Source: Eledone cirrhosa
Lineage: Eukaryota
Length of the DNA stretch: 64,000 nucleotides
Reading direction: 5' to 3'
NCBI GenBank assembly: GCA_964016885.1
Contig: OZ024746.1
Coordinates: 95,790,001-95,854,000, forward strand
The notes beneath the pieces were generated by a model. That model was not told the DNA's origin, made no database searches, and was given only the letters and a program-made list of their open reading frames with translations. Made by a program: the position numbers and the translations under genes. The stretch's first letter is position 1. Every line of letters starts with the position of its first letter. Of the stretch, positions 1-64,000 are shown one piece after another.

Positions 1-3000
1 GAAACATTAATTCTAGTTTCAACTATACCAATGAAAATGTACATAAGAAAATCTCTAGGTTTCGCTCACAACAGAAGTTTGTCTTTCTATGTTTCAGAAT
101 ATTTTACCTCAGAATCCAGCACAAAAGAATCCATATTAGAAAGTACAACTTTTGTATGGCATAAATCATTAATAACTACTTTGGGTTTAACTGATATATC
201 AGTAAAACCTGAAAAATCAATAATATACATCAACACCACCATTTCCCCAATTATACTGACCTCTGTAATAAAACCATTTAGTGGTTGGTATGCCTTAGAA
301 AGATCATTTGCTTCAAGATATAAATGGGAACAAACTTATAAGGCAGAGAAATCAACCCTTCATTTAAAGACCTTGAAATCCACTACAACTTCTTCATTAT
401 TAAAACTAACTCTTATGAGTGTACCTAAAATTGTGGATGATTTTAATAGACAACTAAATTTATCTGATTTTAAAATCCAGATTTCAACACTGCCTTTTAC
501 GTCAACACACACAAGACTCACTCTTAACACTGGTTATAGTACTGAACATTTTAATTTTACATTACTCCTGCACCCCTTAAAAACTAAAACTGGAGTAGAT
601 CTTAAACATCTTTTCTCAAATCTTACGTCTATGACAAATTTAGTTAGTTTAGTTTACTCAAAGGTTTCAACTTTAAACTCGTCAATAGATTTTTGGCAGA
701 AAAGCATTTCTATTGAGGTTACACCAAAACTACATGTTTCTTCATTAGTTTCATTGAAACATTATTTTGAGCAAGTAACACAAAGAGCAAAGATAATATC
801 AAACACATCAGTGGTAATTGTTACAAATGGAACTGAGTCTGAACAAATGGATTCTGTATTAGAAACACAGGGTCTAATGAAAATACAGACAGTAACAGGA
901 GTGACAAAACAACTAAAAAGAACAAGTTTCGCTGAAATGTCTAAATTAAAATTACATCTTTATACTACAAAATTAATGCACATTTCTCTTCATACATTTT
1001 CAGTTTCTCTTGCTCCTACTAAGTTATTTCTTATTGCTTCTTCTTCATCCAGTAGTCCTTCACTACCAACAAATATTTCTCTGTCTTCAACTGCTACTTC
1101 TACATATAAAGTTACATTTGAACAGAAATTTAATCAAACAGAGCCGACCATAAGATTACTAATAAATCAGTCAACTACTGACATCATATTTCATAATCAA
1201 AACACATCAACAACAGTGAAGCCATTAACAACTATGGAGCCAACTTACAGTGAATCCTATGATATAGTATCCTACTTCAGTAGAGTTAAATTAATCCCAT
1301 TCTTTTCTTTGTCATCAATAGGAGATATTATGTCAACAAATATGGTGTCAATTCAACAAAGTAATAAAACCGAAAGTAAATATTCAAAATCACATTTTAA
1401 ATTACATAATAAAACAACTACAGCTGTGGGATTTATTGAAACTATTACCAACTTTAGTGATAAAAAAAATGTTTCCGAAATTACTCCTATAACAACCATT
1501 CCAGTGAATATATCAACACAAACTTTGCTAACTAATGTAAGTGAATTTTCCATTCCATTCACAACTGATCTTAGTTTTCATTTCAGAACAATCTATCCTA
1601 CAACTATACTATCTTTTCATCAGATTACAAGTACAACTGGCCCACTGAATACAACAGTATCTATTCATTGGACAAAGGAATTAACACTCTTCCAAGAAAT
1701 ATCTATAGTCAGTCAGTCAGGTGTGATTTCTCCTCAAGAGGCGTCTCATCATTTTCTGTTTACTGTATCACCGTCACAAAATATATCAGAATTTACCATT
1801 CTAATGACTGGATCACCTTTTCTTAAAACATTTGACGATATTATGTTTACCCCAGCATCATTTTCGCAGATATCAGAAGGTACCAGCTTTCTAATGGGAC
1901 CATCTGTTGTTGAAACATCAAAAGATGTCCTATTTACTACAACCATACCACAGGTAGTTTCAGAAGGTACCAGCTATCTAATGGAACCATCTCTTGTTGC
2001 AATATCAAAAGATGTCCTATTTACTACAACTATACCCCAGATGGTATCAGAAGGTACCAGCTATCTAATGGGACCATCTGTTGTTGAAATATCAAAAGAT
2101 GTCCTATTTACTACAACTATACCACAGATAGTATCAGAAGGTACCAGCTATCTAATGGGACCATCTGTTGTTGAAATATCAAAAGATGTCCTATTTACTA
2201 CAACCATACCCCAAGCAGTATCAGAAGGTACCAGCTATCTAATGGGACCATCTGTTGTTGCAATATCAAAATATGTCCTATTTACTACAACCATACCCCA
2301 AGCAGTATCAGAAGGTACCAGCTATCTAATGGGACCATCTATTGTTGCAATATCAAAAGATGTCCTATTTACTACAACCATACCACGGGTAGTTTCAGAA
2401 GGTACCAGCTATCTAATGGGACCATCTGTTGTTAAAATATCAAAAGATGTTCTATTTACTACAACTATACCCCAAGCAGTATCAGAAGGTACCAGCTATC
2501 TAATGGAACCATCTGTTGTTGAAATATCAAAAGATGTCCTATTTACTACAACCATACCCCAAGCAGTATCAGAAGGTACCAGCTATCTAATGGAACCATC
2601 TGTTGTTGCAATATCAAAATATGTCCTATTTACTACAACCATACCCCAAGCAGTATCAGAAGGTACCAGCTATCTAATGGGACCATCTATTGTTGCAATA
2701 TCAAAAGATGTCCTATTTACTACAACCATACCACTGGTAGTTTCAGAAGGTACCAGCTATCTAATGGGACCATCTGTTGTTGAAATATCAAAAGATGTCC
2801 TATTTACTACAACTATACCACAGGTAGTCTCAGAAGGTACCAGCTATCTAATTGAACCATCTCTTGTTGCAATATCAAAAGATGTGCTATTTACTACAAC
2901 CATACCACAGGTAGTTTCAGAAGGTACCAGCTATCTAATGGGACCATCTGTTGTTGCACCATCAAAAGATGTCCTATTTACTACAACTATACCACAGGTA

Positions 3001-6000
3001 GTCTCAGAAGGTACCAGCTATCTAATGGAACCATCTGTTGTTGAAATATCAAAAGATGTCCTATTTACTACAACTATACCCCAGATGGTATCAGAAGGTG
3101 CCAGCTATCTAATGGAACCATCTATTGTTGCAATATCAAAAGATGTCCTATTTACTACAACCATACCACAGGTAGTTTCAGAAGGTACCAGCTATCTAAT
3201 GGGACCATCTGTTGTTGCACCATCAAAAGATGTCCTATTTACTACAACCATACCACAGATAGTATCAGAAGATACCAGCTATCTAATGGAACCATCTCTT
3301 GTTGCAATATCAAAAGATGTCCTATTTACTACAACTATACCACAGGTAGTCTCAGAAGATACCAGCTATCTAATGGAACCATCTGTTGTTGCAATATCAA
3401 AAGATGTCCTATTTACTACAACCATACCGCAGATAGTATCAGAAGGTACCAGCTATCTAATGGGACCATCTGTTGTTGCAATATCAAAAGATGTCCTATT
3501 TACTACAACCATACCACAGATAGTATCAGAAGGTACCAGCTATCTAATGGAACCATCTCTTGTTGCAATATCAAAAGATGTCCTATTTACTACAACCATA
3601 CCACAGATAGTATCAGAAGGTACCAGTTATCTAATGAGACCATCTGTTGTTGCAATATCAAAAGATGTCCTATTTACTACAACCATACCACAGATAGTAT
3701 CAGAAGGTACCAGCTATCTAATGGGACCATCTGTTGTTGCAATATCAAAAGATGTCCTATTTACTACAACCATACCACAGATAGTATCAGAAGGTACCAG
3801 CCTATTAGTTGAACCACCTTTTCAAGGAACATATGAAGATATTTTATTAACTGCATTTTCTTTTCAAGAAACTTCTGAAGATAGAGTAATCTATTCTGAA
3901 ACTAGCCAGTTGCTCCAGAAGCACCAGTCTTTTCACCATGTCACAACCATGAAAGTAGTTGTAGAAAGTCCTGATTTGATTTCATCAGTGTCAGATATAT
4001 ATGAAACACATACAATACCAGCCTGGATGTATTTGAATGAAACATCAACATGGAAATTGCAGAAGGTTTTAAAATTCAAAGACCAAACTGACAAACCAGT
4101 CACCAATGAATTACTCACAGTAACCAGCAGAAGTTACTTTATCAAAGAAGAACAGTCTATGGCAACTGATACTGGAACTGGAACTAAATGGTATAAATAT
4201 TTAGAAACCTCTACACTAAAACTGAGTTATGAATTACCAAGAGATGAAAAAAAGATACAAATGTACCAGAAAACAAAAACTATATTTAATGAAACTGCTA
4301 TAACTTCTTTTTTAATTGGATATTCTAATCAAACTAATACTTCTATTTCATTTACCCAATTAATTAAAAGTACTGATGCAGATTTTATATTTCATCAAAC
4401 CTCTAAATTAAAAGCAATAGGTCGAACTACTGAAGCTAAAGTTTGTCAAACTAAAGGACTTCCTTTTAGTCCCTTAGTTTCATCAATAGCAATTGTTATT
4501 ACTACAGAAAGTACTAGTAAACATTTATCAACCAAACCAATGCTTAGTATAGATCCAACATATCTGAATTTAACAGTGGACTATGAAGCATTAAGTAAAA
4601 CTGTTGCGGACATTAGTAAAAGAAGTATTTTGGCAACAGACCAACAATTACAGACGTTTCCTGAAACTAAAGTAATAAAAGGAACAACTACTGATTATGT
4701 AATTTCATTTTCTTATGATGCTTCTGAGAAAGTCACACACCATACTTCCAAAGAAATACTTAGCTTCCAGAAAACATGGAAAATGTTTTATATTCTTGAC
4801 AAAATTTATTCACAATCATTACTTGAAACCTCTTCTGAAGTAACTGATTACATTTTGGTAACAAGCCAAACCTTTCTAGAATCTTCTATTGTTAGAGTAA
4901 GTTTCCAAAGAAAAGGAAAATCTTCTGAAGTAACTGATGTTATTAAACAGACAGAACTAAAAACAATTTCAGATACTGTGACTTTTAGCCATAAAGATTA
5001 TATTCACTTACTTCAATACAGTCCAACGACAAAAGCTGCTATTGAGGACATTTACACATATCGTCTTGCGTTGGAGGACACATCAATGTCAAAAAGACCC
5101 CAACGATTATTATCTACTAAAATTAAAACAATAAGTAATTTTACTATGAAATTAGATACTCATGAGGATAAAAGAGACAAAACAATTTCACCATATACAA
5201 ACCTAACAACAACAAGGAACATTACTTTTATGTTTGACTTACCGCTAATGGTCACCTTAAATTATAGCAAAGATGTGGTTTCCTCAAAGTTTAAAACACT
5301 TTTGAAAGTCCCAGGTTTATCAAATGTTACTAAATTCATTGGAACTATACCTTCTTCTTATTATTATTCTAAAGGAAGAAGAGAACATTTATCGGAAGTT
5401 GATAAAACAAGAATTAGCATAGGTTTAGTGACAAAGAAGTATGAACGTGAACAAACAACCATTGTAGTTTTGGCTACAATAGAAATGGAAGCTGTTTCTA
5501 ATATCTATGACAAAAATGCTACAATATACCACACAGATTCTGAAATATTCACATTCACTAGTAAAATAAAGACTAGAGTGGTCAATGGAAGCCAAATAAA
5601 GAGTAAGATTTTAAGTGAATCAACAACATCTAGCAGCCTCATAAAATATATTCCAGAACATAAACTAACTTTTGATGAAATGTTATTTTATACAACAACA
5701 ATTCAAAATTTAACTGCCATAAAAGTATCACAAGTTAAAGCCCCTGTTATTGAATTTGAAATATCAACATTAATAACTACTTTATACTGGCCAGTGGTAG
5801 CTTTTATACACGATAAGAAATCAACAGGTGAAATATTCTTTACTACATCAATAACTGATTTCACATCAACAGAAAGTATGTTATTAGATGGTCACACAAG
5901 TTCAAAAATATTCATCTATAAACAAAAGTCACTTTTATATGAAATTCTGCAAACGAAACACCATACTACATATCCAGAAACAGGATCTACAGATTACATA

Positions 6001-9000
6001 TCAACCCCAGAGAAGAGTCTTACACCACTACATATGGATTCATTAGCATTAGCTACCATTGGATTACACACAACAGTTATGGGAACATTAATATTTACTC
6101 CAAAAACTATTGAATATACTACCCCTGCCCAGCAAACAACTGTTGAAGAACAAATGGGCAGGAATGTAACATCTTTAGAAGAAAAAGATAAACATATATT
6201 GATATATTTGATTGAAGTAACAGAGCAGAAAACTACAATTGTTCCAGTAACATTTACACCAAAGTCTAAGAAAATATCTGAGCTAATTTCAGAAAAAGTA
6301 ACTCAAATGACACTCTTTACTTATTTTAGATACCCTGAATCAATAACTGACACACCATTAATAAATATATCTGATGTTACACATATTTTGAGAAAACTTA
6401 TAAGAGAAACTGTTTCACATGCATCAAAGAAATCACTTCATACAAAAATTGTTCCAGATGGCTCAATAGAGAGTTTGAATAAGTCTTTACTGCTAACAAA
6501 GGAAGAAAACACAACTTATTTTAAGATTGAAACTATAACCTTTTCTATGAAAGAATTCAATATATTTGTTCAGAGCCCTAATCTAATAGAAGATATAAGT
6601 ACTTATATGCCTAGTTCTCTTGTAGTGATATCTACTGAAGATATTTTGTTAAGAAGTAAACTAAGACCTTCAGAATATCTGGATAAGATAGATAGAGCAT
6701 ATTTTACAAGGGAGGAAATTAGTTTGGAATCTGGGGCAAGGGAAATTGGTACTCAACGTAGTTTTACAAAGATTATTGTAAACATAACTGATGATATAAC
6801 AATTATAAAAATAGCGACAAAGACAAGTGAGAAACCTATCGAGTTAGAACCAACTTTGATAACAATTATTCCAGCAGATAAGATAGAACCAACTTTGAGA
6901 AAAGTTATTTCAACAGATAAAATAAAACTGACTTCAATAACAGTAATTCAAACAGATAAAATAGAACCAGTTTTCATGACAGTTATTCCAACAGATGAAA
7001 TAGAACCAGTTTTCACAACAATTATTCCAACAGATAAAATAGAAATAGTTTCAAGAACAGTTATTCCAACAGATGAAATAGAACCAGTTTTCACAACAAT
7101 TATTCCAACAGATAAAATAGAACCAGTTTTCACAACCATTATTCCAACAGATAAAATAGAAATAGTTTCAAGAACAGTTATTCCAACAGATAAAATAGAA
7201 CCAGTTTTCACAACAATTATTCCAACAGATAAAATAGAACCAGTTTTCACAACAATTATTCCAACAGATAAAATAGAAATAGTTTCAAGAACAGTTATTC
7301 CAACAGATAAAATAGAACCAGTTTTTACAACAATTATTCCAACAGATAAAATAGAACCAGTTTCCACAACAGTTATTCCATCAGATAAAATATATACTAA
7401 TCACACAAATATATCTGTAATCCAGAATATTACAATGACAATTGGTATGAAGTTTTATTTGGAAACAGTTACAGTTTTTAAAGATACAATAAAATCAGCA
7501 GCCACAAAAGACATTGATATACTTGAAATAGGATCCACTCTGGCTTCTATCTATCAAATTCCAGAAGAATCTATCAGTAAGAAGCCAGCAATAAATGTAT
7601 CAAAAATAACTATCTTAAAAAGAACAATAAAGCCCAGGGATTTTGAAGACAGTGTCGCTGGCTTAAAATATATATGGCAGTCTGGAAGTGGGTATTTTAC
7701 TAGTTTAAATTATTCTAAAACCTACCTCTTTCATACGACATATACCCTGGAAAAAATATCTGGGTTACATTTGACAGTAACACCAGTATTTTATATTGAA
7801 ACTATTTCTATTCCGAAAGTAGATTATATTCAACAAAAAGAATTATCTTTGATGACTACAGTAAAATTACCTATATGGATGGAATCTCAAGATGAAGGAA
7901 GAAAAACGAGCAGTGAAAATGTTTCTGAAATTCAAACAACATTTTCTGAAAAGAGGACTCTTCTAGATGTACCTATTACAAATATCTCTGACTTAGTTAT
8001 CTATGTGTTTACTACTAAAGTAATTGGTAAGCCAGTCACTGCTAGTCACATGACTTACAAAAATATTTCAAGTGATATGTTAATAGATCTTGATGTTGTT
8101 ATATCCACCAATACTACAGTTAGTGATATAGTGACACCACATTTATACCAAACAGTAACTAAAACTTATGATGACATCCACCAACAATCTATTGAAAGTT
8201 ATAAAAATGTAACCAGCAAGAAAGAGTTTGAGGAAGAAGCAGCAAAAGATTTGCTAAAACAAACTTCAAGACACTCTAAATTTACAGATGACTTTATTCG
8301 TATGTCTAGAATAAATTACTCTATTTCTTTTACCAGCAAATCTTCTAAGACCTTTTCATCTCATCATTTTGATAGAAATACCACCACCAGCAGCAGGAGA
8401 ACATACTTTGTGGAACATACTGTAAGACCAGATAAATTATATAACAGAAAATCAAGTTTAAGAAGCAGTTCTTTCCTATCTTACAAAACTGTTCAACCAA
8501 CAGTCATGTTAGCTATATCAAACATTACTGTTCATACTAAAACAACTGCAAAACAAGTAATACATAAACTAACATCTGACACAATGTTTCCTATAACTGA
8601 AAAGCCTGTGTTCCTTACTAGTATCAAGAATGATTCTAAACCAAGACTAGTGGATATTGTACTAAAAGAAATAAGTTCTGAAATTATTACACCAAGTTCA
8701 AGTTTCGTTTTGAAGAAAATATCAAAGGAAACCTTATCATTTAAGAAAGAAGTTACTGAGAAACCTTCCTTACACATTTACAGTCGAGCTGTTGTGAGTT
8801 ACAATCAAAAAATGAGTACACAGGATCTAATCATTCATAAATTTCTAACTAAAATTGTTACTCCTAAAATTAAACCCCAACTTAGTCTTGCAGCTGTGAA
8901 CATTACAAGTTTTGATTTACAAGAATTTATATATCTTATGAGCCAAGGGGTAACAATACCAAATATATTCTCTAATATATCTTTTGTCACACTGTTTTTT

Positions 9001-12000
9001 AACCAAAGTATTTATATGATAGATAGTTCCACCAAATCTAGTGTTGATGAAGTGGCTACAATTCCTTACAGCAAATATATTGGTATAGAAACAACTGGAG
9101 ATACAAGAAGTGTAGTTCATATACATCACTTACCTTTAACTACTGAGATACTGTTTGATATTAGTATTAGTGTATCTAACATGAGCCTTGATGAAATCAG
9201 AGATACAACCCTATCAACATTGCAGGAAACAGCAAGTATTTATATAATTAACACAACTGATACTATACTTAGAGATACTATACATAGAGGTACTATACAA
9301 AGAGATACTATACATAGAGGTACTATACAAAGAGATACTATACATAGAGGTACTATACTTAGAGATCCCAGTGGAACAGAGATATCAAAAATAATCCAAG
9401 TTACACCCATTAAAAAACCTGATATAAAAATAAAAATTACAGCAACTGATGAAATGATTTCACTTACAGTCAGCAGTAAAACATCAGTGTTACATTTAAA
9501 AGCTAGAACCAAATTAATTTCTACTTCTCATACATCAAAACATTTATCTGTAGTATCATATAAAACAAGCAGTGGGTTAATTTCAAAGGAAAATGACACA
9601 GAAGCAGCAATTACAACAACATATTTTATTGTTCCTCATATGAAAGCTAAAAACTATACTGATCAGATTGTACTTCAAATGACACCTACATTAGAGAGTA
9701 GAAGCCATCTTGAAAACAGAACAGATATAATGCAAAGTTCTTTTCTTGAATTGCCAGATATCTTTTTTCTGTATACTGAATCACCAGAAATATCTACAAG
9801 ATTTGATGATATTCAATTGCTGCAAGAAAAACTTTTATATTCTAAAAAAAGAAAAGTGGCGAATGTTATCAACATAATTACAACAACAACAACAAGAATC
9901 AATATAACTATGTTACCATTAACAGAAACTATCTTTCCAACTTTACAAACAGTTAGTACCATAAACAATTATACTATTGCAATGCAATTGTTTACTACTG
10001 TGAGAAGTGTAAAGAAAACATCACAAAAGGAATATTATAAAAAATATAGCCACAGTTATAAATTAAGATCTAAATCAGTGACGTTTGAGACAATATATAC
10101 AAAAGTAACAGATAAAACAATGAAACCCAACCAAATCATGGAACAAATTGGCATAAAGGATATGCTGTATTTAAATACAGAACAAAACATGTTTGATTCC
10201 TTGTTATTGAACACTTTACTTATACCAACACTTGTTATTACAAAAGAAAGCAGTTCTTCCTATCAGAATCAGACCCAGAAGGATTCAGTGCTTCATAGTA
10301 GTAAGGTTCGTGATATTTTTATCCCATTCACTACGATAAAAACTTGTAAATATACAAAAGAAGACAGGACACCAACTTTAGATCAAACAATTGTGCTGAG
10401 AAGAACCTCTCCTGGCAGTTTCTCTCTGAGTAAATCTGGAGAGTACAGTTTGTCAACAGAATATACTTCCTCAGTTTCACAATTTATATTTGATAAAACA
10501 GAAGATGATAATTATTTTACAGATGAAATAATTTCTTATGATAAAAAAGGATTAATACTACCCATAACCAAAATAAAAAAGAAAGATTTACTCAAGGGGC
10601 TCACAGATTATACTACCCAAAGTAAGATCGATAAAGTAACATTGGGATATATTTATGGAATAGATACAGTAATAGTTAATAAAACCTATACTCCCCAACA
10701 AAGAGATACTGTTACAGTTACAAAATTTCCAAGCAGTGACAAGTCACAAGTTTTTTCTATAGATACATTCATAGTGACAACTTATTCAGGATTAGAAATG
10801 GTATTGGCAGTAACAACAATTTCAGACAAAACTAAAGCACCATTACATATATCAACTGAAGTTGGACATATCACCCCCATGATTCCACATAGTACTCCTC
10901 TAACTCCTAAGGCCACTATTACAGTACTACATACTACTTCACTAAATCCATATTCTGTCCTTACGATACCACACTCGACAGTTGTAACTTTACATATAGC
11001 TGTCACACAACTGAATATTACTACTATTACAGTACCAGACACTCTCTCAACAGAATCATATACAACCATTACATATTCTCATACTATTGAAATACCACAA
11101 ACAGCCACCACGTCTCGACATCCTCAAACTCTAATTCCATCCACATCTGCTACAATTCCTCATGGCACCTCTATATTACCACAACAAACAAGTGTATTAT
11201 CAAAGTCTACAACCAAATCAACAGATGCTGTTGTTACTGTAGCACAACATCACACAATACTTTCATACAGTGTCACTGAAGAAACATATACAACCTCTAT
11301 AAGTAGAAACAGCACAATAACATCACATATCAGAACTGTAACACAACATACCATAGTTGTAATACCACCTGACATACCAACAATAACATCATATAACACA
11401 ACAATAACACCATATAACACAACAATAACACCATATAACACAACAATAACACCATATAACACAACAATAACACCATATAACACAACAATAACACCATATA
11501 ACACAACAATAACACCATATAACACAACAATAATACCATATAATACAACAATAACACCATATAACACAACAATAACACCATATAACACAACAATAACACC
11601 ATATAATACAACAATAACACCATATAACACAACAATAACACCATATAACACAACAATAACACCATATAACACAACAATAACACCATATAACACAACAATA
11701 ACATCACATAACACAACAATAACACCATATAACACAACAATAACACCATATAACACAACAATAACACCATATAACACAACAATAACACCATATAATACAA
11801 CAATAACACCATATAATACAACAATAACACCATATAACACAACAACACCATACAACACAACAACACCATATACCACCACCACAACAACACCTTACAACAT
11901 AACAACAACACCCTACAACATAACAACAACACCATACAACACAACAACAACACCCTACAACACAACAACACCATACAACACAACAACAACACCATACGAC

Positions 12001-15000
12001 ATAACAACAACACCATACAACACAACAACAACACCTTACAACACAACAACAACACCATACAACATAACAACAACACCATACAACATAACAACACCATACA
12101 ACATAACAACAAAACCCTACAACACAACAACACCATACAACACAACAACAACACCATACAGCATAACAACAACACCATACAACATAACAACATATACCAG
12201 CACCACAACACCATACAACACAACAACACCATATACCACCACAACAACACCATACAACACAACAACACCATATACCACCACCACCACAACACCATACAAC
12301 ACAACAACAACACCATACAACATAACAACAACACCATATACCACCACCACAACAACATACAGCACAACAACAACAACATACAACATAACAACAACACCAT
12401 ACAACATAACAACAACACCATACAACACAACAACAACACCATACAACATAACAACAACACCATACACCACAACAACAACACCATACAACACAACAACACC
12501 ATACAACACAACAACACCATACAACATAACAACAACACCATATAACACAACAACACCATACAACACAACAACAACACCATACAACATAACAACAACACCA
12601 TACAACATAACAACAACACCATATAACACAACAACAACACCATACAACACAACAACACCATACAACACAACAACAACAACATACAACATAACAACAACAC
12701 CATACAACACAACAACAACTACATACAAAATAACAACAACACCATATAACACCACAACAATACCATACAACATAACAACACCATACAACATAACAACAAC
12801 ACCATATACCACCACCACAACACCATACAACACAACAACACCATACAACACAACAACAACAACATACAACATAACAACAACACCATACAACACAACAACA
12901 ACAACATACAACATAACAACAACACCATACAACACAACAACAACAACATACAACATAACAACACCATACAACATAACAACAACAACATACAACATAACAA
13001 CAACACCATACAACACAACAACAACTCCATACAAAATAACAACAACTCCATACAAAATAACAACAACACCATATAACACCACAACAATACCATACAACAT
13101 AACAACACCATACAACATAACAACAACACCATATACCACCACAACAACACCATACAACATAACAACAACACCATATACCAGCACAACAACAACACCATAT
13201 ACCACAACAACAACACCATACAACATAACAACAACACCATATACCACAACAACACCATACAACATAACAACAACACCATATACCAGCACAACAACAACAC
13301 CATATACCACAACAACAACACCATACAACATAACAACAACACCATATACCACAACAACACCATACAACATAACAACAACACCATATACCAGCACAACAAC
13401 AACACCATATACCACAACAACAACACCATACAACATAACAACAACACCATATACCACAACAACACCATACAACATAACAACAACACCATATACCAGCACA
13501 ACAACAACACCATATACCACAACAACAACACCATACAACACAACAACAACACCATACAACATAACAACAACACCATACAACATAACAACAACACCATATA
13601 CCAACACCACAACACCATACACCACCACAACACCATACAACACAACAACAACACCATACAACATAACAACGACACCATATACCAGCACCACAACAACATA
13701 CACCACCACAACACCATATACCAGCACCACAACACCATACACCACCACAACACCATACACCACCACAACACCATACAACACAACAACAACACCATACAAC
13801 ATAACAACGACACCATATACCAGCACCACAACACCATACACCACCACAACACCATATACCAGCACCACAACACCATACACCACCACAACACCATACACCA
13901 CAACTTTAACCTCACCTGACACAGGTATATCTCTATATAGTTTTATTGAAGCTCTCTATAACCTAACTGCCACACCACATAATATTACTATAACTCTGTA
14001 TAACACAACTACACCATTACATACCACAACTACTCCATTACATACCACAACTACTCCATTACATACCACAACTACACCATTACATATCACAACTACTCCA
14101 TTACATATCACAACTACTCCATTACATATCACAACTACAACATTACATATCACAACTACACCATTACATATCACAACTACTCCATTACATATCACAACTA
14201 CACCATTACATATCACAACTACTCCATTACATATCACAACTACACCATTACATATCACAACTACACCATTACATATCACAACTACTCCATTACATAATAC
14301 AACTACATCATTACATATCACAACTATATCATTACATATCACAACTACACCATTACATATCACAACTACTCCATTACATAATACAACTACATCATTACAT
14401 ATCACAACTATATCATTACATATCACAACTACAACATTACATATCACAACTACACCATTACATATCACAACTACTCCATTACATATCACAACTACACCAT
14501 TACATATCACAACTACTCCATTACATATCACAACTACACCATTACATATCACAACTACACCATTACATATCACAACTACTCCATTACATAATACAACTAC
14601 ATCATTACATATCACAACTATATCATTACATATCACAACTACTCCATTACATATCACAACTACACCATTACATATCACAACTATATCATTACATATCACA
14701 ACTACTCCATTACATAATACAACTACATCATTATGTCATACAACAGCATCATTACATATCACAACACTCACTGACGAAATATCATTACATAATACAACAT
14801 TAATATCATCTAACACGACTGTCACATCTGTAACTCCTCCTGACACAGATGTAACTCCACCCGACACAACTGTAACTCTATATAATGCAAGTGTAACTCC
14901 ACCTGACACATCTGTAACTACACCTGACACAGCTGTAACTACACCTGACATAGCTGTAACTCCACCTGACACAGCTGTAACTCCACCTGACATAGGCGTA

Positions 15001-18000
15001 ACTCCACCTGACACAGCTGTAACTACACCTGACACAGCTGTAACTACACCTGACATAGCTGTAACTCCACCTGACATAGCTGTAACTCCACCTGACATAG
15101 CTGTAACTCCACCTGACATAGGTGTAACTACACCTGACACAGCTGTAACTACACCTGACATAGCTGTAACTCCACCTGTCATAGCTGTAACTCCACCTGA
15201 CACAGCTGTAACTCCACCTGACATAGGTGTAACTCCACCTGACACAGCTGTAACTACAGCTGACACAGCTGTAACTACACCTGACATAGGTGTAACTCCA
15301 CCTGACATAGGTGTAACTCCACCTGACATAGGTGTAACTCCACCTGACACATCTGTAACTACACCTGACACAGCTGTAACTACACCTGACATAGGTGTAA
15401 CTCCACCTGACATAGGTGTAACTCCACCTGACATAGCTGTAACTCCACCTGACATAGGTGTAACTCCACCTGACATAGGTGTAACTCCACCTGACATAGC
15501 TGTAACTCCACCTGACATAGGTGTAACTCCACCTGACATAGGTGTAACTCCACCTGACATAGGTGTAACTCCACCTGACATAGGTGTAACTCCACCTGAC
15601 ATAGCTATAACTCCACCTGACATAGGTGTAACTCCACCTGACATAGGTGTAACTCCACCTGACATAGGTGTAACTCCACCTGACATAGGTGTAACTCCAC
15701 CTGACACAGCTGTAACTCCACCTGACATAGGTGTAACTCCACCTGACATAGGTGTAACTCCACCTGACATAGGTGTAACTCCACCTGACATAGGTGTAAC
15801 TACACCTGACATAGCTGTAACTCCACCTGACATAGGTGTAACTCCACCTGACATAGCTGTAACTCCACCTGACACAGCTGTAACTCCACCTGACATAGCT
15901 GTAACTCCACCTGACATAGCTGTAACTCCACCTGACACAGCTGTAACTCCACCTGACACAGGTGTAACTCCACCTGACATAGCTGTAACTCCACCTGACA
16001 TAGGTGTAACTCCACCTGACATAGGTGTAACTCTACCTGACACAGCTGTAACTCTACCTGACACAGCTGTAACTCTACCTGACACAGCTGTAACTCCACC
16101 TGACACAGCTGTAACTCCACCTGACATAGCTGTAACTCTACCTGACACAGCTGTAACTCCACCTGACACAGCTGTAACTCCACCTGACACAGCTGTAACT
16201 CCACCTGACACAGCTGTAACTCCACCTGACACAGGTGTAACTCCACCTGACACAGCTGTAACTCCACCTGACATAGGTGTAACTCCACCTGACATAGCTG
16301 CAACTCCACCTGACACATCTGTAACTCCACCTGACACAGCTGTAACTCCACCTGACACAGCTGTAACTCCACCTGACATAGCTGTAACTCCACCTGACAC
16401 AGCTCTAACTCCACCTGACACAGCTCTAACTCCACCTGACATAGGTGTAACTCCACCTGACATAGGTGTAACTCCACCTGACACAGCTGTAACCCTACAT
16501 GCTGCAAGTGTAACTCTGTATGACACAGCTGTAACTCCACCTGACACAGCTGTAACTCCACCTGACATAGGTGTAACTCCACCCGACATAGCTGTAACTC
16601 CACGTGACATAACTGTAACTCCACGTGACACAGGTGTAACTCCACCTGACATAGCTGCAACTCCACCTGACATAGCTGTAACTCCACCTGACACAGCTGT
16701 AACTCCACGTGACATAGCTGTAACTCCACCTGACATAGCTGTAACTCCACCTGACACAGCTGTAACTCCACGTGACATAGCTGTAACTCCACCTGACACA
16801 GGTGTAACTCCACCTGACATAGCTGCAACTCCACCTGACATAGCTGTAACTCCACCTGACACAGCTGTAACTCCACCTGACACAGCTGTAACTCCACGTG
16901 ACATAGCTGTAACTCCACGTGACATAGCTGTAACTCTACCTGACATAGCTATAACTCCACCTGACATAGCTGTAACTCCACCTGACACAGCTGTAACTCC
17001 ACCTGACACAGCTGTAACTCCACATGACATAGCTGTAACTCCACATGACATAGCTGTAACTCCATGTGACATAGCTGTAACTCCACCTGACACAGCTCTA
17101 ACTCCACCTGACACAGCTGTAACTCCACCTGACACAGCTGTAACTCCACGTGACATAGCTGTAACTCCACCTGACACAGCTGTAACTATACCTGGCACAG
17201 CTGTAACTCCACGTGACATAGGTGTAACTCCACCTGACATAGGTGTAACTCCACCTGACATAGCTGTAACTCCACCTGACACAGCTGTAACTCCACCTGA
17301 CATAGCTATAACTCCACGTGACATAGGTGTAACTCCACCTGACATAGGTGTAACTCCACCTGACACAGCTGTAACTCCACCTGACACAGCTGTAACTCCA
17401 TGTGACATAGCTGTAACTCCACCTGACATAGGTGTAACTCCACCTGACACAGCTGTAACTCCACCTGACATAGCTGTAACTCCACATGACATAGGTGTAA
17501 CTCCACCTGACACAGCTGTAACTCCACCTGACACAGCTGTAACTCCACCTGACACAGCTATAACTCCACGTGACATAGGTGTAACTCCACCTGACATAGG
17601 TGTAACTCCACCTGACACAGCTGTAACTCCACCTGACACAGCTGTAACTCCATGTGACATAGCTGTAACTCCACCTGACATAGCTGTAACTCCACATGAC
17701 ACAGCTGTAACTCCACATGACATAGCTGTAACTCCACATGACATAGGTGTAACTCCACCTGACACAGCTGTAACTCCACCTGACACAGCTGTAACTCCAC
17801 CTGACACAGGTGTAACTCCACCTGACACAGCTGTAACTCCACGTGACATAGCTGTAACTCCACGTGACATAGGTGTAACTCCACCTGACATAGCTGTAAC
17901 TCCACCTGACACAGGTGTAACTCCACCTGACATAGCTGTAACTCCACGTGACACAGCTGTAACTCCACCTGACACAGCTGTAACGCTACATGATGCAAGT

Positions 18001-21000
18001 GTAACTCTGTATGACATAGATAACACCACTATAATATCACCTCATGTCGGAACTGTAATATCAGATAATACCACCACCATAATATCCCACAATACAACTA
18101 TAGTATCTCATGTGATAAGTGTAACAGCATATGATATAACCATGATACTACATAACACAACTGTTGCTTCACGTAATAAATCACTGATTCAACATCCAAC
18201 AACAACATTAATAACACAATACACACCTCATGTAATGCTACATACAACATACTATATATCTAGTATAGATAATGTGACTGTAGAGTTATATACACCATAT
18301 ACAACATTGCAGAAAACTGTTAGACAATTGTATGTAACTAACTCCACAATCCATACTATGATTTCAAAAATTCAAGAAATAACTGCAACTGTGCACAGTA
18401 AAAATGCAACCAAGTATTCAGATACTACATCTCTCTATATGATGAGTAATATTTCAAAATACCTCAGTTCAACACACAGTATAACTAATGCAACACAAGA
18501 CACAAGTATTGTTACTTCACAAAACACAACTACAGTACTATATACTCTTTGGTTGACTTTAGATACAGACTCTTTGCTTCGTTCTACAGTTACTGTACCT
18601 GCATATACTATGCCTACATTTTCCACACTTTATTTACTGGGCATTACTCCTTCATATACTATGATTGAAAGTCTGAGTGTGTCTCTATACAAATCAGCTC
18701 CATTACTTAATACAACCACTGCACTACAACATTCAATCACTGCCTTATTATATGAAAGTAAAGCTACCTTATTTAGCAGAACAACATTACAAATGGCCAT
18801 TGCATATCCAGAGATGAAAGCTCCAAGCATCACAGCTGCAACTCCACATACAAACATTACAATGACAGACACAACCACTTCAGCATTGTATAGAATGAGT
18901 GTGACTCTACCTACAACAGATATCACATTATACATTCATACTAAAATACCACATTCAACAACTACACTTCTACGACACACACAAATAGAAACAGCAACTA
19001 TTTTAACATTAGACACAATAATTTCAACCAAAGACAGTGCCATTGAAACATTATATGAAACTACATCTGTCATATTAAATACAACAGATGTAATGATCCT
19101 TACAAAAGATGAAATATTTCATAAAATAACAGCTTACAGTTCGAAAACAATTACACAATTCCCGACAACTTCCATCCCACTTGGAACAATTTTCTTCTCG
19201 AGTATAGGACAATATATAGTTCCTGATGACTTTTCTGATTATCTAAATAAATCAACAAGTTCTTATATTGAATTCAGTTCTTATATTTCTATGCCACCTT
19301 ATGACTCTGATTCAGAGACAGTAAAAACAGTTATTAGAAAAGGGCTCTCAAGTATATCAATAGTTCGAATGGAGCATTTAGTTAAGTCATCAAGTGATAT
19401 AACATACACAGGAATAATAACTGACATACAAGAAATATTTCCTCAGAATAATATAACAGACAAGTTCATTATAAGTAGCCTGATGGAGACAAATACAACT
19501 TTCAAACTAGCCACAATTAAAATTTCAGATGTTTTTGATCCTAAACTACAAAAAGTCAGAAAATTTGGCTTCACATACCCAAAACAGAAGAAGAATCTGT
19601 CAGTGTTACATGAGCATGTGACTTCCACTCTAAGTTCTATTTCAAGAGATAACACCACTTTATTAACTTATTTTAAAGATATATCTTCTTCAAAGATTAA
19701 AAAGACACATGAAGTATCTAGACACCAAACAGCATTTTTTAATGTGACAATCCTGAAAAAAGAAACAGCATTTGATACAAAGAAATATATGGATGTAACT
19801 GAATTTTCTTCTACTCAAAGAGAAAAGGAAATTCTAGAAAAATCTGATAAATTTAGAATTAGAATCAAACCCAGAACTACATTTTATATATCTAAGGCTT
19901 TCTCAGAACCTTTCAAAAGAAAGAAAATTGAGTTGTTATCGGTGACCCCAACATTAAAATTACAGACACGGGAACGTTTTATAACATCGTATTTAAATGT
20001 TTCTAAATTAGAAGGTATCAAAGATATCCCTTCTTGCACTTCAGCAACAGAATTTCTTGCCTTATCTGTGACGAAATCATCAGGTTTTACAACTTTAACA
20101 TCAGATATTGTAAGACACCAAAACTTTACATTAACTGATTATATTTCCTTGAAAAAAATAACATTGCCTATTACACAGTTAACAAAAAGTGAAAAGCATC
20201 ATTTAGAAACAAGGTCGACATATTTCAGTAAAGAATTAGCAACATTTCAATTGAAGTCATATCCCTCAGTAGAAATTGAAGAAATAACTATGAAAACATC
20301 TACTGTATTAGAAACATCATATTTTTCTGTTTCTCCAGAAAAAGACTATGATATAACCATATTACAGTTCAAAGATTTAGATACTCCCACACGTGTTGAT
20401 AAGGGATATCCCATGGCAGTATATAATTATACTAATTGGGCAGGGTTCACGTGGTTATCCCAAATAATGAATGTGACATCCTATGAAGTAATGAATTATA
20501 CAGAAAAAGATAAATTAACTCAGCCATCTTTCAAAATTAAAGAAGTTACAGATTTTATTAAAATGTCAAAGATGGAATATAAATTAACAACAAACATTAT
20601 TCCTAGCCAGGAACAACTTGGTGCGCTTTCCTCTAGAATTTCAATCATGTCTTGCAGTAAAATGAAGATGTCTCACACAGTATTAAAGACAACTCCTCCT
20701 TTAGTTGTCTCGTCCAGAGCTAAAACCAGCCCAATATCCTTTGAGAATAAAACAAATTATGTTACCTGGAGTATTAATGGAACTTCATTATATTTAGACA
20801 AAAAATTTACTGTAAAGTCCACCAAATATAAAATTACATCTTTATCAAGTATTACAACTTATCCAGAGGATGATATGAAAGTGTATATAGATTCAATTCT
20901 GCCAGAATTTTCATCTTTATACGTTGAAACTTTTACAACTATATTGAAATATATATATATTTTTCCTAAACCTACTCCTAAAGATGAAAAAAATGAAACA

Positions 21001-24000
21001 ATATTACTGAGAAATAAAACACTTCATTGGACAAAAGATGATTTTGAATTCCTTACTGCCATATTTTATCTAACAACAGTCCATACACCCATTATTGAGA
21101 GTCATTATAAAATAAGTACACCTTTACCACAAAGCAGATTTCCTTACAGAACATTGGAAATTGAATCAATATCAAATAGAAGCCAGACAATTCCATTTAC
21201 ACAAAAAACTTTTAACATAAGTTTTACCATGATTGAACAAAAAAGACAAGACACATTTGTTCACTTACTTACAACATTTAGACCAGATTATTTCCATGAA
21301 AAGAAGATCAAAGTTTCAACAGACACAGATATAGCTTTACATTCTCATTCCAAGGAACCATTTCTCACAATGTTTGAGTTATCTACTTTTTCTGAGGTAT
21401 CACAAACTGAATTAATATTTGTTAAAATTAAACAAGAACATTCTACACAAGTGATGAAAAGACAAACACTATTTGTGGTTGATAAAACTTATAAAGATAT
21501 TATCTCTGAAAATGTAACAAGCAAGTGGCTAATGGCTGATTATAAAACCAAATTTACTACTACCTCTACTCAAGACAAAACATATCTGATCAAATTTCAG
21601 GGAAACACAAGTTTACAATTTGATCAAGTAACAGACTCGATAATTACTTTGAAAATAGAGCTTGGCTTTACACAAAGTATAGAAGTTCATTCCATAAAAA
21701 TACCAAAAATACTATTTGAATTAACCACGAAAGAACCATTTAAGTCAATCATAAAAATACCATTTGAGTCAACCACTAAAGAACCATTTAAGCCAACCAT
21801 GAAAATAGCATTTGAATCAACCACGAAAGAACCATTTGACTCAAATGGTATTTCCATGGAAATTCCATCTAAGTCAACCCTGGAAAGTATATTGCAGATA
21901 TGGTATACTAAGGAAAAAGCAAAATACCTTGATACCTTGACGCAGACAACTCTATTTCCTATATTTGTAAGAGAAACCAAAAGCATGATTTCAAAATACC
22001 CACTTAAAGACAGAATTAAAATGTTATCAGTTGTTGATACTTTTAATTCAGTTTTTAAAAATCTCACATTTGAAAGAGAAAATGTTACAAATATAACAGA
22101 ATCTCCTACATATAAATATCCTACAAAAATCACTGGAATAAGTAAAGAAATTACATCAGAAATAATGAGCATGTATTCAATGTCTCACCTAAAACAAATG
22201 ATTTCAGAAGAGATTTATTTGACTGACAAACGTTTAGTTTTACCTACAATTACCCCTAAACTGACATCAATACTGCAATCTCATGAATTATTTTCCACCA
22301 AAGAAATGCTATCTATAGGAAAACAGACACTTACCGAAAGCCCATTTACAATTCCAGAAATATTTACCTCTTTGAAACATAGGTCTGTTTCTGAAATGAC
22401 TTCTTTGGTTAGTCACAGTTTTAGTCCTATAACAAATATGTTAAGTCTCAGTATATTTCCTATAGTAACTATACCAGTTAACCAGAGTATTTATTCTATA
22501 ACACCAATACTATTTAATGATAGCATTTCTTCTATAACAAATATATCAGTTAACTATAGTAGTTTTCCACTAATAACTGTTCTCTTCAACTACAGCATTT
22601 TTCACCTTAAACTTATACCCTTCAACTATAGTACTTTTCCTACATCAAAAATACATACATATTTTAATCACAGTAGTTTTCCTATAGACACGCTAACATT
22701 TAACTATAGTATTATCCCAATAACAAGAAGCATATTATCAAGCCATATCATTTTCTCTACAACCACAACAGTATTCACTCTTAGCTTTTTTCCTAAATCA
22801 TTATTAAACCATAGTATTGTTGCTATAATAGATACAACCTTTAACTATAGTTCATTTCCAATCACTACTACATTATCTAACCACAGTAGTTATATGATAT
22901 CATATAACCAAAGTATTATTCCTATACCAACTCTCTCATCCAATCACAGCATTTTTATTATACAAACTCTATCATATTACCATCATATCGATTATTTAAT
23001 AACCTCACCATTTATTCATAGTATTGATACGATAACAACTACACCATATAACTACAGTATTGATACAATAACAACTACACCATATAACTACAGTATTGAT
23101 ACAATAACAACTACACCATATAACTATAGTATTGATACAATAACAACAACACCATATAACTACAGTATTGATACAATAACAACAACAGCATATAACTACA
23201 GTATTGATACAATAACAACAATATATAACTATAGTATTGATACAATAACAACAATATATAACTATAGCATTGATACAATAACAACCTCACCATATAACTA
23301 TAGTATTGATACAATAACAACTACACCATATAACTACAGTATTGATACAATAACAACTACACCACATAACTATAGTATTGATACAATAACAACTACACCA
23401 CATAACTACAGTATTGATACAATAACAACTACACCATATAACTACAGTATTGATACAATAACAACCTCACAATATAACTACAGTATTGATACAATAACAA
23501 CTACACCATATAACTATAGTATTGATACAATAACAACTACACCATATAACTACAGTATTGATACAATAACAACTAGACCATATAACTACAGTATTGATTC
23601 AATAACAACCTCACCATATAACTATAGTATTGATACAATAACAACCTCACCATATAACTATAGTATTGATACAATAACAACTACACCATATAACTACAGT
23701 ATTGATACAATAACAACTAGACCATATAACTACAGTATTGATACAATAACAACCTCACCATATAACTATAGTATTGATACAATAACAACCTCACCATATA
23801 ACTATAGTATTGATACAATAACAACTACACCACATAACTATAGTATTGATACAATAACAACTACACCACGTAACTACAGTATTGATACAATAACAACTAC
23901 ACCACATAACTACAGTATTGATACAATAACAACTACACCATATAACTATAGTATTGATACAATAACAACCTCACCATATAACTACAGTATTGATACAATA

Positions 24001-27000
24001 ACAACTACACCACATAACTATAGTATTGATACAATAACAACTACACCATATAACTACAGTATTGATACAATAACAACTATACCATATAACTACAGTATTG
24101 ATACAATAACAACTACACCATATAACTATAGTATTGATACAATAACAACTACACCATATAACTACAGTATTGATACAATAACAACTACACCATATAACTA
24201 CAGTATTGATACAATAACAACCTCACCATATAACTACAGTATTGATACAATAACAACTACACCATATAACTACAGTATTGATACAATAACAACTACACCA
24301 TATAACTACAGTATTGATACAATAACAACCTCACCATATAACTACAGTATTGATACAATAACAACTACACCATATAACTACAGTATTGATACAATAACAA
24401 CTACACCATATAACTACAGTATTGATACAATAACAACCTCACCATATAACTACAGTATTGATACAATAACAACTACACCATATAACTATAGTATTGATAC
24501 AATAACAACTACACCATATAACTATAGTATTGATACAATAACAACTACACTATATAACTATAGTATTGATACAATAACAACTACACCACATAACTACAGT
24601 ATTGATACAATAACAACTACACCATATAACTATAGTATTGATACAATAACAACCTCACCATATAACTACAGTATTGATACAATAACAACTACACCATATA
24701 ACTATAGTATTGATACAATAACAACTACACCACGTAACTACAGTATTGATACAATAACAACTGCACCACATAACTACAGTATTGATACAATAACAACTAC
24801 ACCATATAACTATAGTATTGATACAATAACAACCTCACCATATAACTACAGTATTGATACAATAACAACTACACCATATAACTACAGTATTGATACAATA
24901 ACAACTACACCATATAACTATAGTATTGAAACAATAACAACTACACCACGTAACTACAGTATTGATACAATAACAACTACACCATATAACTATAGTATTG
25001 ATACAATAACAACCTCACCATATAACTACAGTATTGATACAATAACAACCTCACCATATAACTACAGTATTGATACAATAACAACTACACCATATAACTA
25101 CAGTATTGATACAATAACAACTACACCATATAACTACAGTATTGATACAATAACAACTACACCATATAACTATAGTATTGATACAATAACAACTACACCA
25201 TATAACTACAGTATTGATACAATAACAACCTCACCATATAACTATAGTATTGATACAATAACAACTACACCATATAACTACAGTATTGATACAATAACAA
25301 CTACACCATATAACTATAGTATTGATACAATAACAACTACACCATATAACTATAGTATTGATACAATAACAACTACACCATATAACTATAGTATTGATAC
25401 AATAACAACCTCACAATATAACTATAGTATTGATACAATAACAACTACACCATATAACTACAGTATTGATACAATAACAACCTCACAATATAACTATAGT
25501 ATTGAAACAATAACAACTACACCATATAACTACAGTATTGATACAATAACAACTACACCACATAACTACAGTATTGATACAATAACAACCTCACAATATA
25601 ACTATAGTATTGAAACAATAACAACTACACCACGTAACTACAGTATTGATACAATAACAACTACACCATATAACTATAGTATTGATACAATAACAACTAC
25701 ACCATATAACTACAGTATTGATACAATAACAACTACACCATATAACTATAGTATTGTTACAATAACAACCTCACCATATAACTACAGTATTGATACAATA
25801 ACAACTACACCATATAACTACAGTATTGATACAATAACAACTACACCATATAACTATAGTATTGATACAATAACAACCTCACCATATAACTACAGTATTG
25901 ATACAATAACAACTACACCATATAACTACAGTATTGATACAATAACAACCTCACAATATAACTACAGTATTGATACAATAACAACTACACAATATAACTA
26001 TAGTATTGATACAATAACAACTACACCACATAACTACAGTATTGATACAATAACAACTACACCATATAACTACAGTATTGATACAATAACAACAATATAT
26101 AACTATAGTATTGATACAATAACAACTACACCATATAACTATAGTATTGATACAATAACAACTACACCAAATAACTATAGTATTGATACAATAACAACTA
26201 CACCATATAACTACAGTATTGATACAATAACAACAATATATAACTATAGTATTGATACAATAACAACTACACCATATAACTACAGTATTGATACAATAAC
26301 AACTACACCATATAACTACAGTATTGATACAATAACAACAATATATAACTATAGTATTGATACAATAACAACCTCACCATATAACTACAGTATTGTTCCA
26401 ATAATCACGACCACATATAACTACAGTATTGACTCCATAACAACTACACCATATAACCATAGTATTGTTCCAATAACAACTACAGTATTTAAACATAGTA
26501 TTCTTCTGACAACTTTATATTATAACTATACTATACTACCTGCGACAAACGTATCATATTATCACAGTATTGCTCCTATATCAACCTCACCATATAACTA
26601 TAGTATTTCCTCCATAACAATCATACCATTTAATCATAGTAGTTCCCCTATAAAAACCAGATTATTTCAGCTCAGTATTATTCCTACAATATCATTACCA
26701 GGTTACTATAGAATATCAACTAAAAGTAAATTTCCTCTCTTAGATATTCTATTTAACCAAAGCGTCTTCACTGAAAAACATGTATCATTTAAACATAGTA
26801 TGTACCTTTTAACTACTGTTGTATTTAATCATAGTCAAATTTCCCTAACAAGTTCATCATTTAGCTATAGTATTGGTCCTATAACAACTACATCCTTTAG
26901 CCCTAATATCACATCTGTATCCCTTGAGTCAATTCATAGTATTATTTCTACACCAAGTCTGATATCTAATCATTCTATTGTTATAACATCAATGAGCCCA

Positions 27001-63999: not shown

Positions 64000-64000
64000 A
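62830..64000 (+). repeat. 45-nt coding repeat, about 26 units and truncated by the window end, VSTIPDHVTSGDITA
   Basis: Tandem GTTAGTACTATACCAGACCATGTGACATCTGGAGATATAACAGCA. Confidence 0.95.

Follow-up and report, generated by a model that had tools for sequence, protein, structure and literature searches.

The genome of the octopod Eledone cirrhosa (3.0 Gb; assembly GCA_964016885.1) includes a 64,000-nucleotide stretch of contig OZ024746.1 (G000:C6:95,790,001-95,854,000, forward strand; hereafter the window) that lies inside one giant predicted coding exon, the stalk exon of a gene resembling that for the membrane mucin MUC4. Asparagine (Asn) residues of this stalk are found almost only in N-glycosylation sequons (N-x-S/T, where x is not Pro), and the bias is mostly the result of a shortage of Asn elsewhere. 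All 21,333 codons of the window's frame +1 are free of stops; with 100 kb added on each side, the frame is open for 42,948 codons from stop to stop. A polypyrimidine-AG acceptor lies near the start of the frame and a GT donor three codons ahead of its stop, and the predicted single coding exon between them is 128,751 nt long (G000:C6:95,772,572-95,901,322, plus strand, flanked by AG and GT and in phase 1 at either end). From base composition, 4.5% of codons would be stops, and none is present in the exon. In linear window coordinates, where 0 is the base preceding window base 1, the exon extends from -17,428 to 111,322; it exceeds the window by 17,429 bases on the upstream side and by 47,322 bases downstream, the whole window (1..64000, +) being interior. 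The exon contains 42,916 full codons (computed mass 4.72 MDa unmodified) and is rich in Thr (17.5%), Ser (11.9%), and Pro (5.8%). Tandem arrays make up 46% of it, 35 spacers of at least 150 residues together account for 21,593 residues, and 859 of its 1,023 Asn are in sequons.

The bias was first seen in the non-repetitive stalk spacer at window positions 1..1560 (+), approximately codons 5,810-6,330 of the exon, where a preliminary description had counted by hand 18 sequons among 23 Asn; a recount of window codons 1-520 returns the same 18 triplets. The local Ser plus Thr (S+T) fraction, thought to be about a third or less, is 0.294, against which the sequon excess has a binomial p of 1.8e-6. 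Ser or Thr follows Asn at +1 in 5/23 cases and at +3 in 8/23, and none of 100,000 shuffled sequences reaches 18 sequons (mean 6.5, standard deviation 2.1, maximum 17). The expectation that the pattern continues in later spacers is borne out: across the 22 inter-array spacers of the window longer than 90 nt, 246/304 Asn have Ser or Thr at +2 (0.81 against a background of 0.269), compared with 50/304 at +1 and 75/304 at +3. In these spacers the excess at +2 is unique to Asn, other residues giving 0.22-0.33 (Cys 4/9). When the same DNA is read, unmasked, in the other five frames, the +2 rates are 0.06-0.20 against backgrounds of 0.07-0.18, and the bias is therefore not a product of DNA periodicity.

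The remaining features of the window, all on the plus strand, are similar. Three mostly unique spacers (3817..11377) have 18/22, 19/22, and 9/18 Asn in sequons, the last being the weakest in the window among spacers with at least 10 Asn; the unique spacer at 17985..21704 has 33/37, the longest unique spacer (26485..33323) 52/66, the two unique spacers at 38360..44506 25/29 and 9/12, and the last unique spacer (60025..62829) 16/18. Two arrays are also built on sequons, with 87/87 Asn in the 21-bp array at 11378..13904 and 96/97 in the 36-bp array at 23020..26484.

Several properties of the exon bear on whether it is coding. Among array rows longer than 200 bp, 85/88 have a period divisible by 3. 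Of the 2,000-codon bins, the first has a sequon fraction of 0.38 in unmasked sequence, and the 21 that follow all lie within 0.55-1.00. The 35 long spacers are mutually unique except for one short internal match; thus, the length of the exon is not that of a duplicated haplotype. Contigs from three sequencing runs bridge window positions 26,485-33,323 without a break and differ there by 4 missense substitutions, with no indel or stop; the runs come from one sample, possibly the assembly's own source, and this is the one spacer that was compared with reads. At window position 32339, one of the four differences turns a free (non-sequon) Asn followed by Asp into Ser, a single anecdote from that same sample.

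Downstream of the giant exon are 16 exons over ~39 kb (L017-L020), mapped with the aid of orthologue models and given here in linear window coordinates. Three exons at ~118,258-122,852 encode a NIDO domain (Pfam PF06119, 48.5 and 29.2 bits on two of the exons, cut-off 25), followed by a Cys-rich exon at ~123,948-124,400 (88% identity to Octopus bimaculoides and 72% to Argonauta) and three exons at ~126,687-130,650 for a VWD domain that has a GDPH motif, the predicted cleavage site, at its start. The gene's own VWD exon pieces are below the Pfam cut-off; VWD is over the cut-off in both orthologues that were scanned whole. Six linker and EGF exons (~131,690-144,694; PF00008, 22 bits, cut-off 21.5) precede a hydrophobic exon for a membrane helix, judged by eye (~147,098-147,178), and two tail exons that end at ~150,256; the helix and tail exons match the Argonauta model.

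MUC4-type membrane mucins carry the domains NIDO, AMOP, VWD, and EGF, according to the accessible text of PMC4890752, and a large S/T/P-rich stalk exon with tandem repeats, as in that type, is present here. AMOP (PF03782) matches neither the Cys-rich exon, which is of similar size and sits at the expected AMOP position between NIDO and VWD, nor the orthologues. The five AMOP matches found genome-wide are all away from this locus; BLAST detects no similarity between the Cys-rich exon and one of these five places, and searches with ESM Atlas features and solved-structure sequences returned nothing usable. Because AMOP is unmatched, the gene is called MUC4-like rather than MUC4. Dense O-glycosylation and surface display of its product are putative. 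Within the downstream region, a tandem array directly after a small exon (L019:876-3179) is open in several frames and reads as a Cys-rich pseudo-protein; it is likely to be an intronic minisatellite that could mislead annotation.

Orthologues are found among 'mucin-4-like' models of O. bimaculoides (XP_014785347.1, XP_052824421.1) and Argonauta hians (GAB1598474.1, GAB1609470.1). These share the stalk-to-NIDO junction, at which the last codons of the giant exon are joined directly to the first NIDO exon; their last stalk spacers are collinear with those of E. cirrhosa (42-62% identity), and their stalks have the sequon bias. They differ in length (1,586-1,739 residues, with only 672-1,076 residues of stalk), and Argonauta has GDSH in place of GDPH. 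The models start inside the stalk and so look truncated. In the four models, which as two per species represent two independent species, 24/27, 22/28, 15/19, and 14/19 stalk Asn are in sequons, compared with 14/48, 11/41, 16/66, and 17/70 (24-29%) in the folded C-terminal parts. A 'mucin-4-like' protein has been detected in the skin-mucus proteome of O. vulgaris, as reported in PMC11431876; it may be the orthologue of this gene, and the E. cirrhosa genome has several NIDO loci.

The start of the protein would lie upstream of the giant exon. A candidate first exon of 48 nt (L009:5042-5089), 7.5 kb upstream, combines an acceptor with an ATG and a consensus phase-1 donor, and would put the start just ahead of a hydrophobic run at residues 5-23 of the giant exon (hydropathy 2.05), the only signal-like run identified at the N-terminus; it is a good candidate drawn from many ATG-donor pairs across 60 kb. 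The whole protein is predicted to be ~43,900 residues long, an estimate that adds the 956-residue tail of the fullest orthologue to the exon and is not a joined translation. The preliminary description had argued that the protein is translated and enters the secretory pathway, independently of the absence of stops, and the frame-specific bias, its agreement with the rules of N-glycosylation (below), the orthologue stalks, and the downstream exons support that argument. We regard it as highly likely that the stretch is a translated secretory mucin stalk, and as likely that the giant exon is used whole.

How the bias arises is evident from stalk spacers after codon 1,000, with arrays left out (S+T 0.27), to which the following statistics apply. 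In these, 484/573 Asn are in sequons, a ~3.1-fold enrichment. Asn occupies 484 of the 5,998 positions that have Ser or Thr at +2 (8.1%) and 89 of the 15,956 others (0.56%), and the modelled expectation from codon-position base composition is 6.5%. A modest sequon excess (~1.3-fold) is thus joined to a ~12-fold deficit of free Asn, and the bias is mostly a purging of Asn that cannot be glycosylated. The earlier proposal that the protein is selected for N-glycans therefore holds to the extent of that modest excess, but the bulk of the effect is the deficit of other Asn. The Asn/Lys ratio is 1.56 where Ser or Thr is at +2 and 0.08 in other contexts; between the same two contexts Asp/Glu (1.15 and 1.13) and His/Gln (0.86 and 0.73) barely shift.

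The bias follows the fine rules of oligosaccharyltransferase, with Pro avoided at +1 and +3 and Thr preferred, although occupancy of the sites is putative. Pro is at +3 in 1/484 sequons (background 4.0%), Asn-Pro accounts for 3/573 Asn (3.9% expected), and Pro-blocked sequon contexts hold 1 Asn in 400; N-x-T (276) outnumbers N-x-S (208; p 0.04). Avoidance of Pro at +3 is a known preference of oligosaccharyltransferase. The rule on Pro at +1 and the preference for Thr are set out in the accessible part of PMC5562741. Within spacer sequons Asn-Ser is scarce (8/685 positions) and Asn-Gly enriched (17/105).

Controls from outside the stalk have fewer Asn in sequons, and single sites within the stalk change. 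Across codons 1 to 1,000 of the giant exon, Asn occupies 57/839 non-S/T positions and 22/79 Asn are in sequons, and in the unique N-terminal 800 residues of a paralogue the count is 9/48. Sequon sites are shared with O. bimaculoides in 9/15 cases (65% column identity) and with Argonauta in 5/18 (44%), and single sites are no better conserved than Lys or Asp. Where one side has no sequon, it lacks the Asn itself in 13/15 (O. bimaculoides) and 17/19 (Argonauta) cases. Since sites turn over while the bias persists, selection appears to act on a bulk property and not on particular sites. The idea that free Asn are purely recently decayed sequons proved insufficient, one-step neighbours of Ser or Thr codons being present in 64/88 cases against a background of 63%; C>T-type neighbours of free Asn are raised (45/88 versus 29%), and N-x-N, the G>A product of AGY Ser codons, was seen once.

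The explanation that we favour, and hold to be probable though not strongly so, is that the region forms part of the stalk of an octopod MUC4-like membrane mucin, a stalk predicted to come from the one 128,751-nt exon, and that Asn survives there almost solely at places open to N-glycosylation. A short upstream exon would supply the start and signal peptide, the chain would be threaded into the endoplasmic reticulum (ER), and oligosaccharyltransferase would cap most of the ~860 sequons while Ser and Thr take O-glycans; cleavage at GDPH, as hypothesised for MUC4, would leave a giant outer subunit on a membrane anchor. Bare Asn in a very long unfolded chain would deamidate or break, the per-site damage summing with length; at the expected rate, the spacers alone would hold ~1,000 free Asn. 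Bulk selection would then tolerate or mildly favour a new Asn before x-S/T and remove it elsewhere, fastest before a small residue, and other labile bonds (Asn-Pro, Asp-Pro) would be purged as well.

The residues next to free Asn point to this chemistry. Free Asn is followed by Gly, His, Ser, Ala, or Asp in 2/88 cases, versus 76/484 sequon Asn and a background of 25.7% (Fisher p 1.7e-4); without Ser the comparison is 1/88 versus 68/484 (p 1.2e-4). The three most depleted dipeptides in the spacers, among those with an expectation of at least 10, are Asn-Ser (9 against 74.7 expected), Asn-Pro (3 against 22.5), and Asp-Pro (16 against 49.3), and in arrays Asp-Pro is found 4 times against 148 expected. 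Bonds of Asp or Asn to a following Pro are prone to spontaneous cleavage. For unstructured peptides, the rate of deamidation varies with the N+1 residue and is highest when this is small (available text of PMC4682632), a rule that the avoidance of small +1 residues by free Asn matches. Chemical lability is ranked first among the causes of the purge, ahead of selection for glycan density and, third, an Asn-specific protease, and has in our judgement about an even chance of being the main one. The joint proposal of a ~43,900-residue, 4.8-MDa (before glycans) cell-surface mucin with a one-exon stalk that has been stripped of labile chemistry for chain integrity (free Asn, Asn-Pro, Asn-Ser, and Asp-Pro, with one programmed Asp-Pro cut left at GDPH) is more tentative and rather less likely than not.

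A number of points weigh against this explanation. The exon and the protein are predictions from genomic DNA, and a search of sequencing runs listed no RNA run with the sequence. Orthologous sequence was found, in the protein sets searched, for the last ~2,200 residues of the exon and for nothing further upstream. The Asn level taken as neutral is modelled rather than measured, and the purge, seen here in octopod stalks, may not be special to them. The neighbouring residues do not conform throughout: Lys is also absent at +1 of free Asn (0/1,109 positions) and Thr is tolerated (12/2,264), Asn-Ser is depleted even inside sequons (at 8/685), and the residue at +2 of free Asn is mostly hydrophobic (69/88), a feature that does not follow from the N+1 rule. 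Low values are seen for Gly-Pro (0.40) and Pro-Pro (0.50) too, and Asp-Pro may thus be the end of a gradient. A literature search found no source on the lability of Asp-Pro or Asn-Pro.

Positive selection for N-glycan density, with glycans serving as a bottlebrush, for hydration, or as handles for ER lectin chaperones and free Asn being low because stalks are poor in Asn, is possible but rather unlikely as the cause of the bias. It would account for the use of sequons as units of the arrays (350/367 array Asn, including the 87/87 and 96/97 arrays), for the Asn/Lys ratio in sequon contexts, which exceeds those of Asp/Glu and His/Gln, and for the preference for N-x-T; positive selection of exposed sequons is documented elsewhere (PMC5562741, accessible part). 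It does not, however, predict that free Asn avoids small +1 residues or that Asp-Pro is depleted, and the poverty in Asn would still need a reason. The spacers have 22 sequons per 1,000 residues, less than half the 5.02 per 100 of human immunodeficiency virus (HIV) gp120 given in the excerpt of PMC2920574.

A second alternative, compatible with the other readings, concerns the chain rather than the bias: the stretch may be coding without any 44,000-residue protein ever being produced, in-frame splicing inside it or internal promoters yielding shorter isoforms in place of one chain. The giant exon is a prediction from DNA, the public orthologue models have only 1,586-1,739 residues and start within the stalk, and a single signal-like run was identified at an N-terminus whose first exon is a candidate. 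On the other hand, a kilobase-scale in-frame intron would not remain open where ~4.5% of codons are expected to be stops, the secretory signature is present in every 2,000-codon bin, and the orthologue models begin at differing internal Met residues and, by eye, lack any obvious signal-like run, as truncated models would. We consider such isoforms unlikely as a replacement for the whole chain.

N-glycans block asparaginyl endopeptidases, and a legumain-type protease of the host, prey, or microbes that cuts exposed stalk at unglycosylated Asn would account for the contrast between 8.1% and 0.56% equally well; the uneven +1/+2 pattern around free Asn could reflect its subsites. The depletion of Asp-Pro would be left unaccounted for, no passage on blocking by glycans was found in the accessible portion of a review (PMC9788469), and this cause is improbable. 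That composition, a DNA periodicity, decaying repeats, or misassembly could produce the sequon bias as an artefact is already refuted and has a negligible chance of being right: 46% of the exon is tandem repeat and array lengths may be over- or under-assembled, but the sequon statistics leave arrays out, the five other frames show nothing, the 35 spacers (21,593 residues) share no duplicated block save the one short match, the contigs over 26,485-33,323 are free of indels and stops, and two other octopod species have the same bias.

The gene resembles human MUC4 in architecture at a different scale. Both have one large repeat-bearing stalk exon and then many small exons, the candidate first exon here would correspond to the small first exon of MUC4, and both encode EGF-like domains, a membrane helix, a short tail, and a GDPH site (available text of PMC2360313). 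By that text MUC4 has exons of up to 22 kb, a single 48-bp repeat, and N-glycan-rich parts that are C-terminal, whereas the octopod exon measures 128.75 kb, combines dozens of distinct arrays with ~22,000 residues of unique spacer, has sequons throughout the stalk, and leaves Pfam AMOP unmatched. Human MUC12 is likewise a membrane mucin with a stalk in one very large coding exon, bearing a variable number tandem repeat; its longest allele, 23,080 residues, is called the largest human coding exon (PMC13345508, part seen), and the octopus exon is almost twice that. The predicted protein is longer than titin and close in scale to PKZILLA-1 (45,212 residues, 4.7 MDa, ~25% larger than titin; excerpt of bioRxiv 10.1101/2024.01.29.577497). 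PKZILLA-1 differs in being a 17-exon algal enzyme with RNA and peptide support, while the octopus glycoprotein is predicted from genomic DNA.

Sequon enrichment has been described before, at ~2-fold in human lysosomal proteins (PMC5562741) and 3.84-fold over expectation in HIV gp120 (PMC2920574), in the parts of those sources that were accessible. Like the octopod stalk, these proteins have sequons in excess of chance in lumenal or extracellular regions, and they prefer Thr. There, however, the pattern is described as selection for sequons; here the ~3.1-fold value comes mainly from the loss of non-sequon Asn, and species differ in sequons by the presence or absence of Asn. What is new here is the mechanism of the bias, the purging of free Asn, and not sequon enrichment as such. 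A literature search, the coverage of which mostly leaves out subscription journals, turned up no earlier account of the gene, nor any of free Asn being purged from mucins.

The sequon bias provides evidence, independent of expression, that the 129-kb open frame is genuinely a coding exon for a secretory product. A protein made in full would push the records for the longest animal protein and the longest single coding exon well past titin and MUC12, and the question arises of how such an exon is defined and exported and its product translocated. A bias of this kind is usually read as gain of glycans, and the numbers here point to loss of unprotected Asn. The purge constitutes a testable rule for very long disordered extracellular chains and may guide the design of long recombinant mucins; if true, it would mean that chain length sets a limit on amino-acid usage that can be read in sequence. 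The frame-specific sequon test is also a cheap means to rescue giant stalk exons truncated by annotation, as has apparently happened in the two other octopods.

The giant exon has further features outside the sequon statistics. Many of its arrays are acidic (Asp-rich), unlike a plain Pro/Thr/Ser mucin, and Cys is rare, numbering 57 across the exon and amounting in spacers to 0.14 of the expected level. Its N-terminal region of ~1,000 residues, upstream of the window, includes two furin-like sites followed by a Cys-repeat segment (L010:4557-5186), a single-copy segment with eight Cys and a repeated hydrophobic-x-L/V-x-C pattern, which may be a released or oligomerising domain. The segment has no homologue among proteins of 369-2,000 residues or in the ESM Atlas; the one match among 1.84 billion representatives was discarded, being a sum of hits to a tandem repeat that is unrelated. 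A single-sequence fold reached a predicted local distance difference test (pLDDT) score of 35 and gave no usable model. The N-terminal 999 residues of the exon matched nothing among proteins of 30-548 residues, and eight stalk and N-terminal pieces gave no Pfam family over cut-off.

Genome-wide there are twelve NIDO and five AMOP matches, on C2, C4, C6 (100.7 Mb), C7, C8, C21, and C28 of G000. At five of six other NIDO places checked, there is no sense-strand open frame longer than 1,000 codons within 30-40 kb upstream. A second NIDO-linked mucin lies on the minus strand at G000:C8:46,339,554-46,257,360 (L027-L029, L043-L048) and has a giant Thr/Pro-rich open frame: 13,886 codons are open up to a 200-N assembly gap at 46,297,979-46,298,178, past which an open frame of similar length ends 2.6 kb from the NIDO exon. 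The product of this gene is perhaps more than 27,000 residues long.

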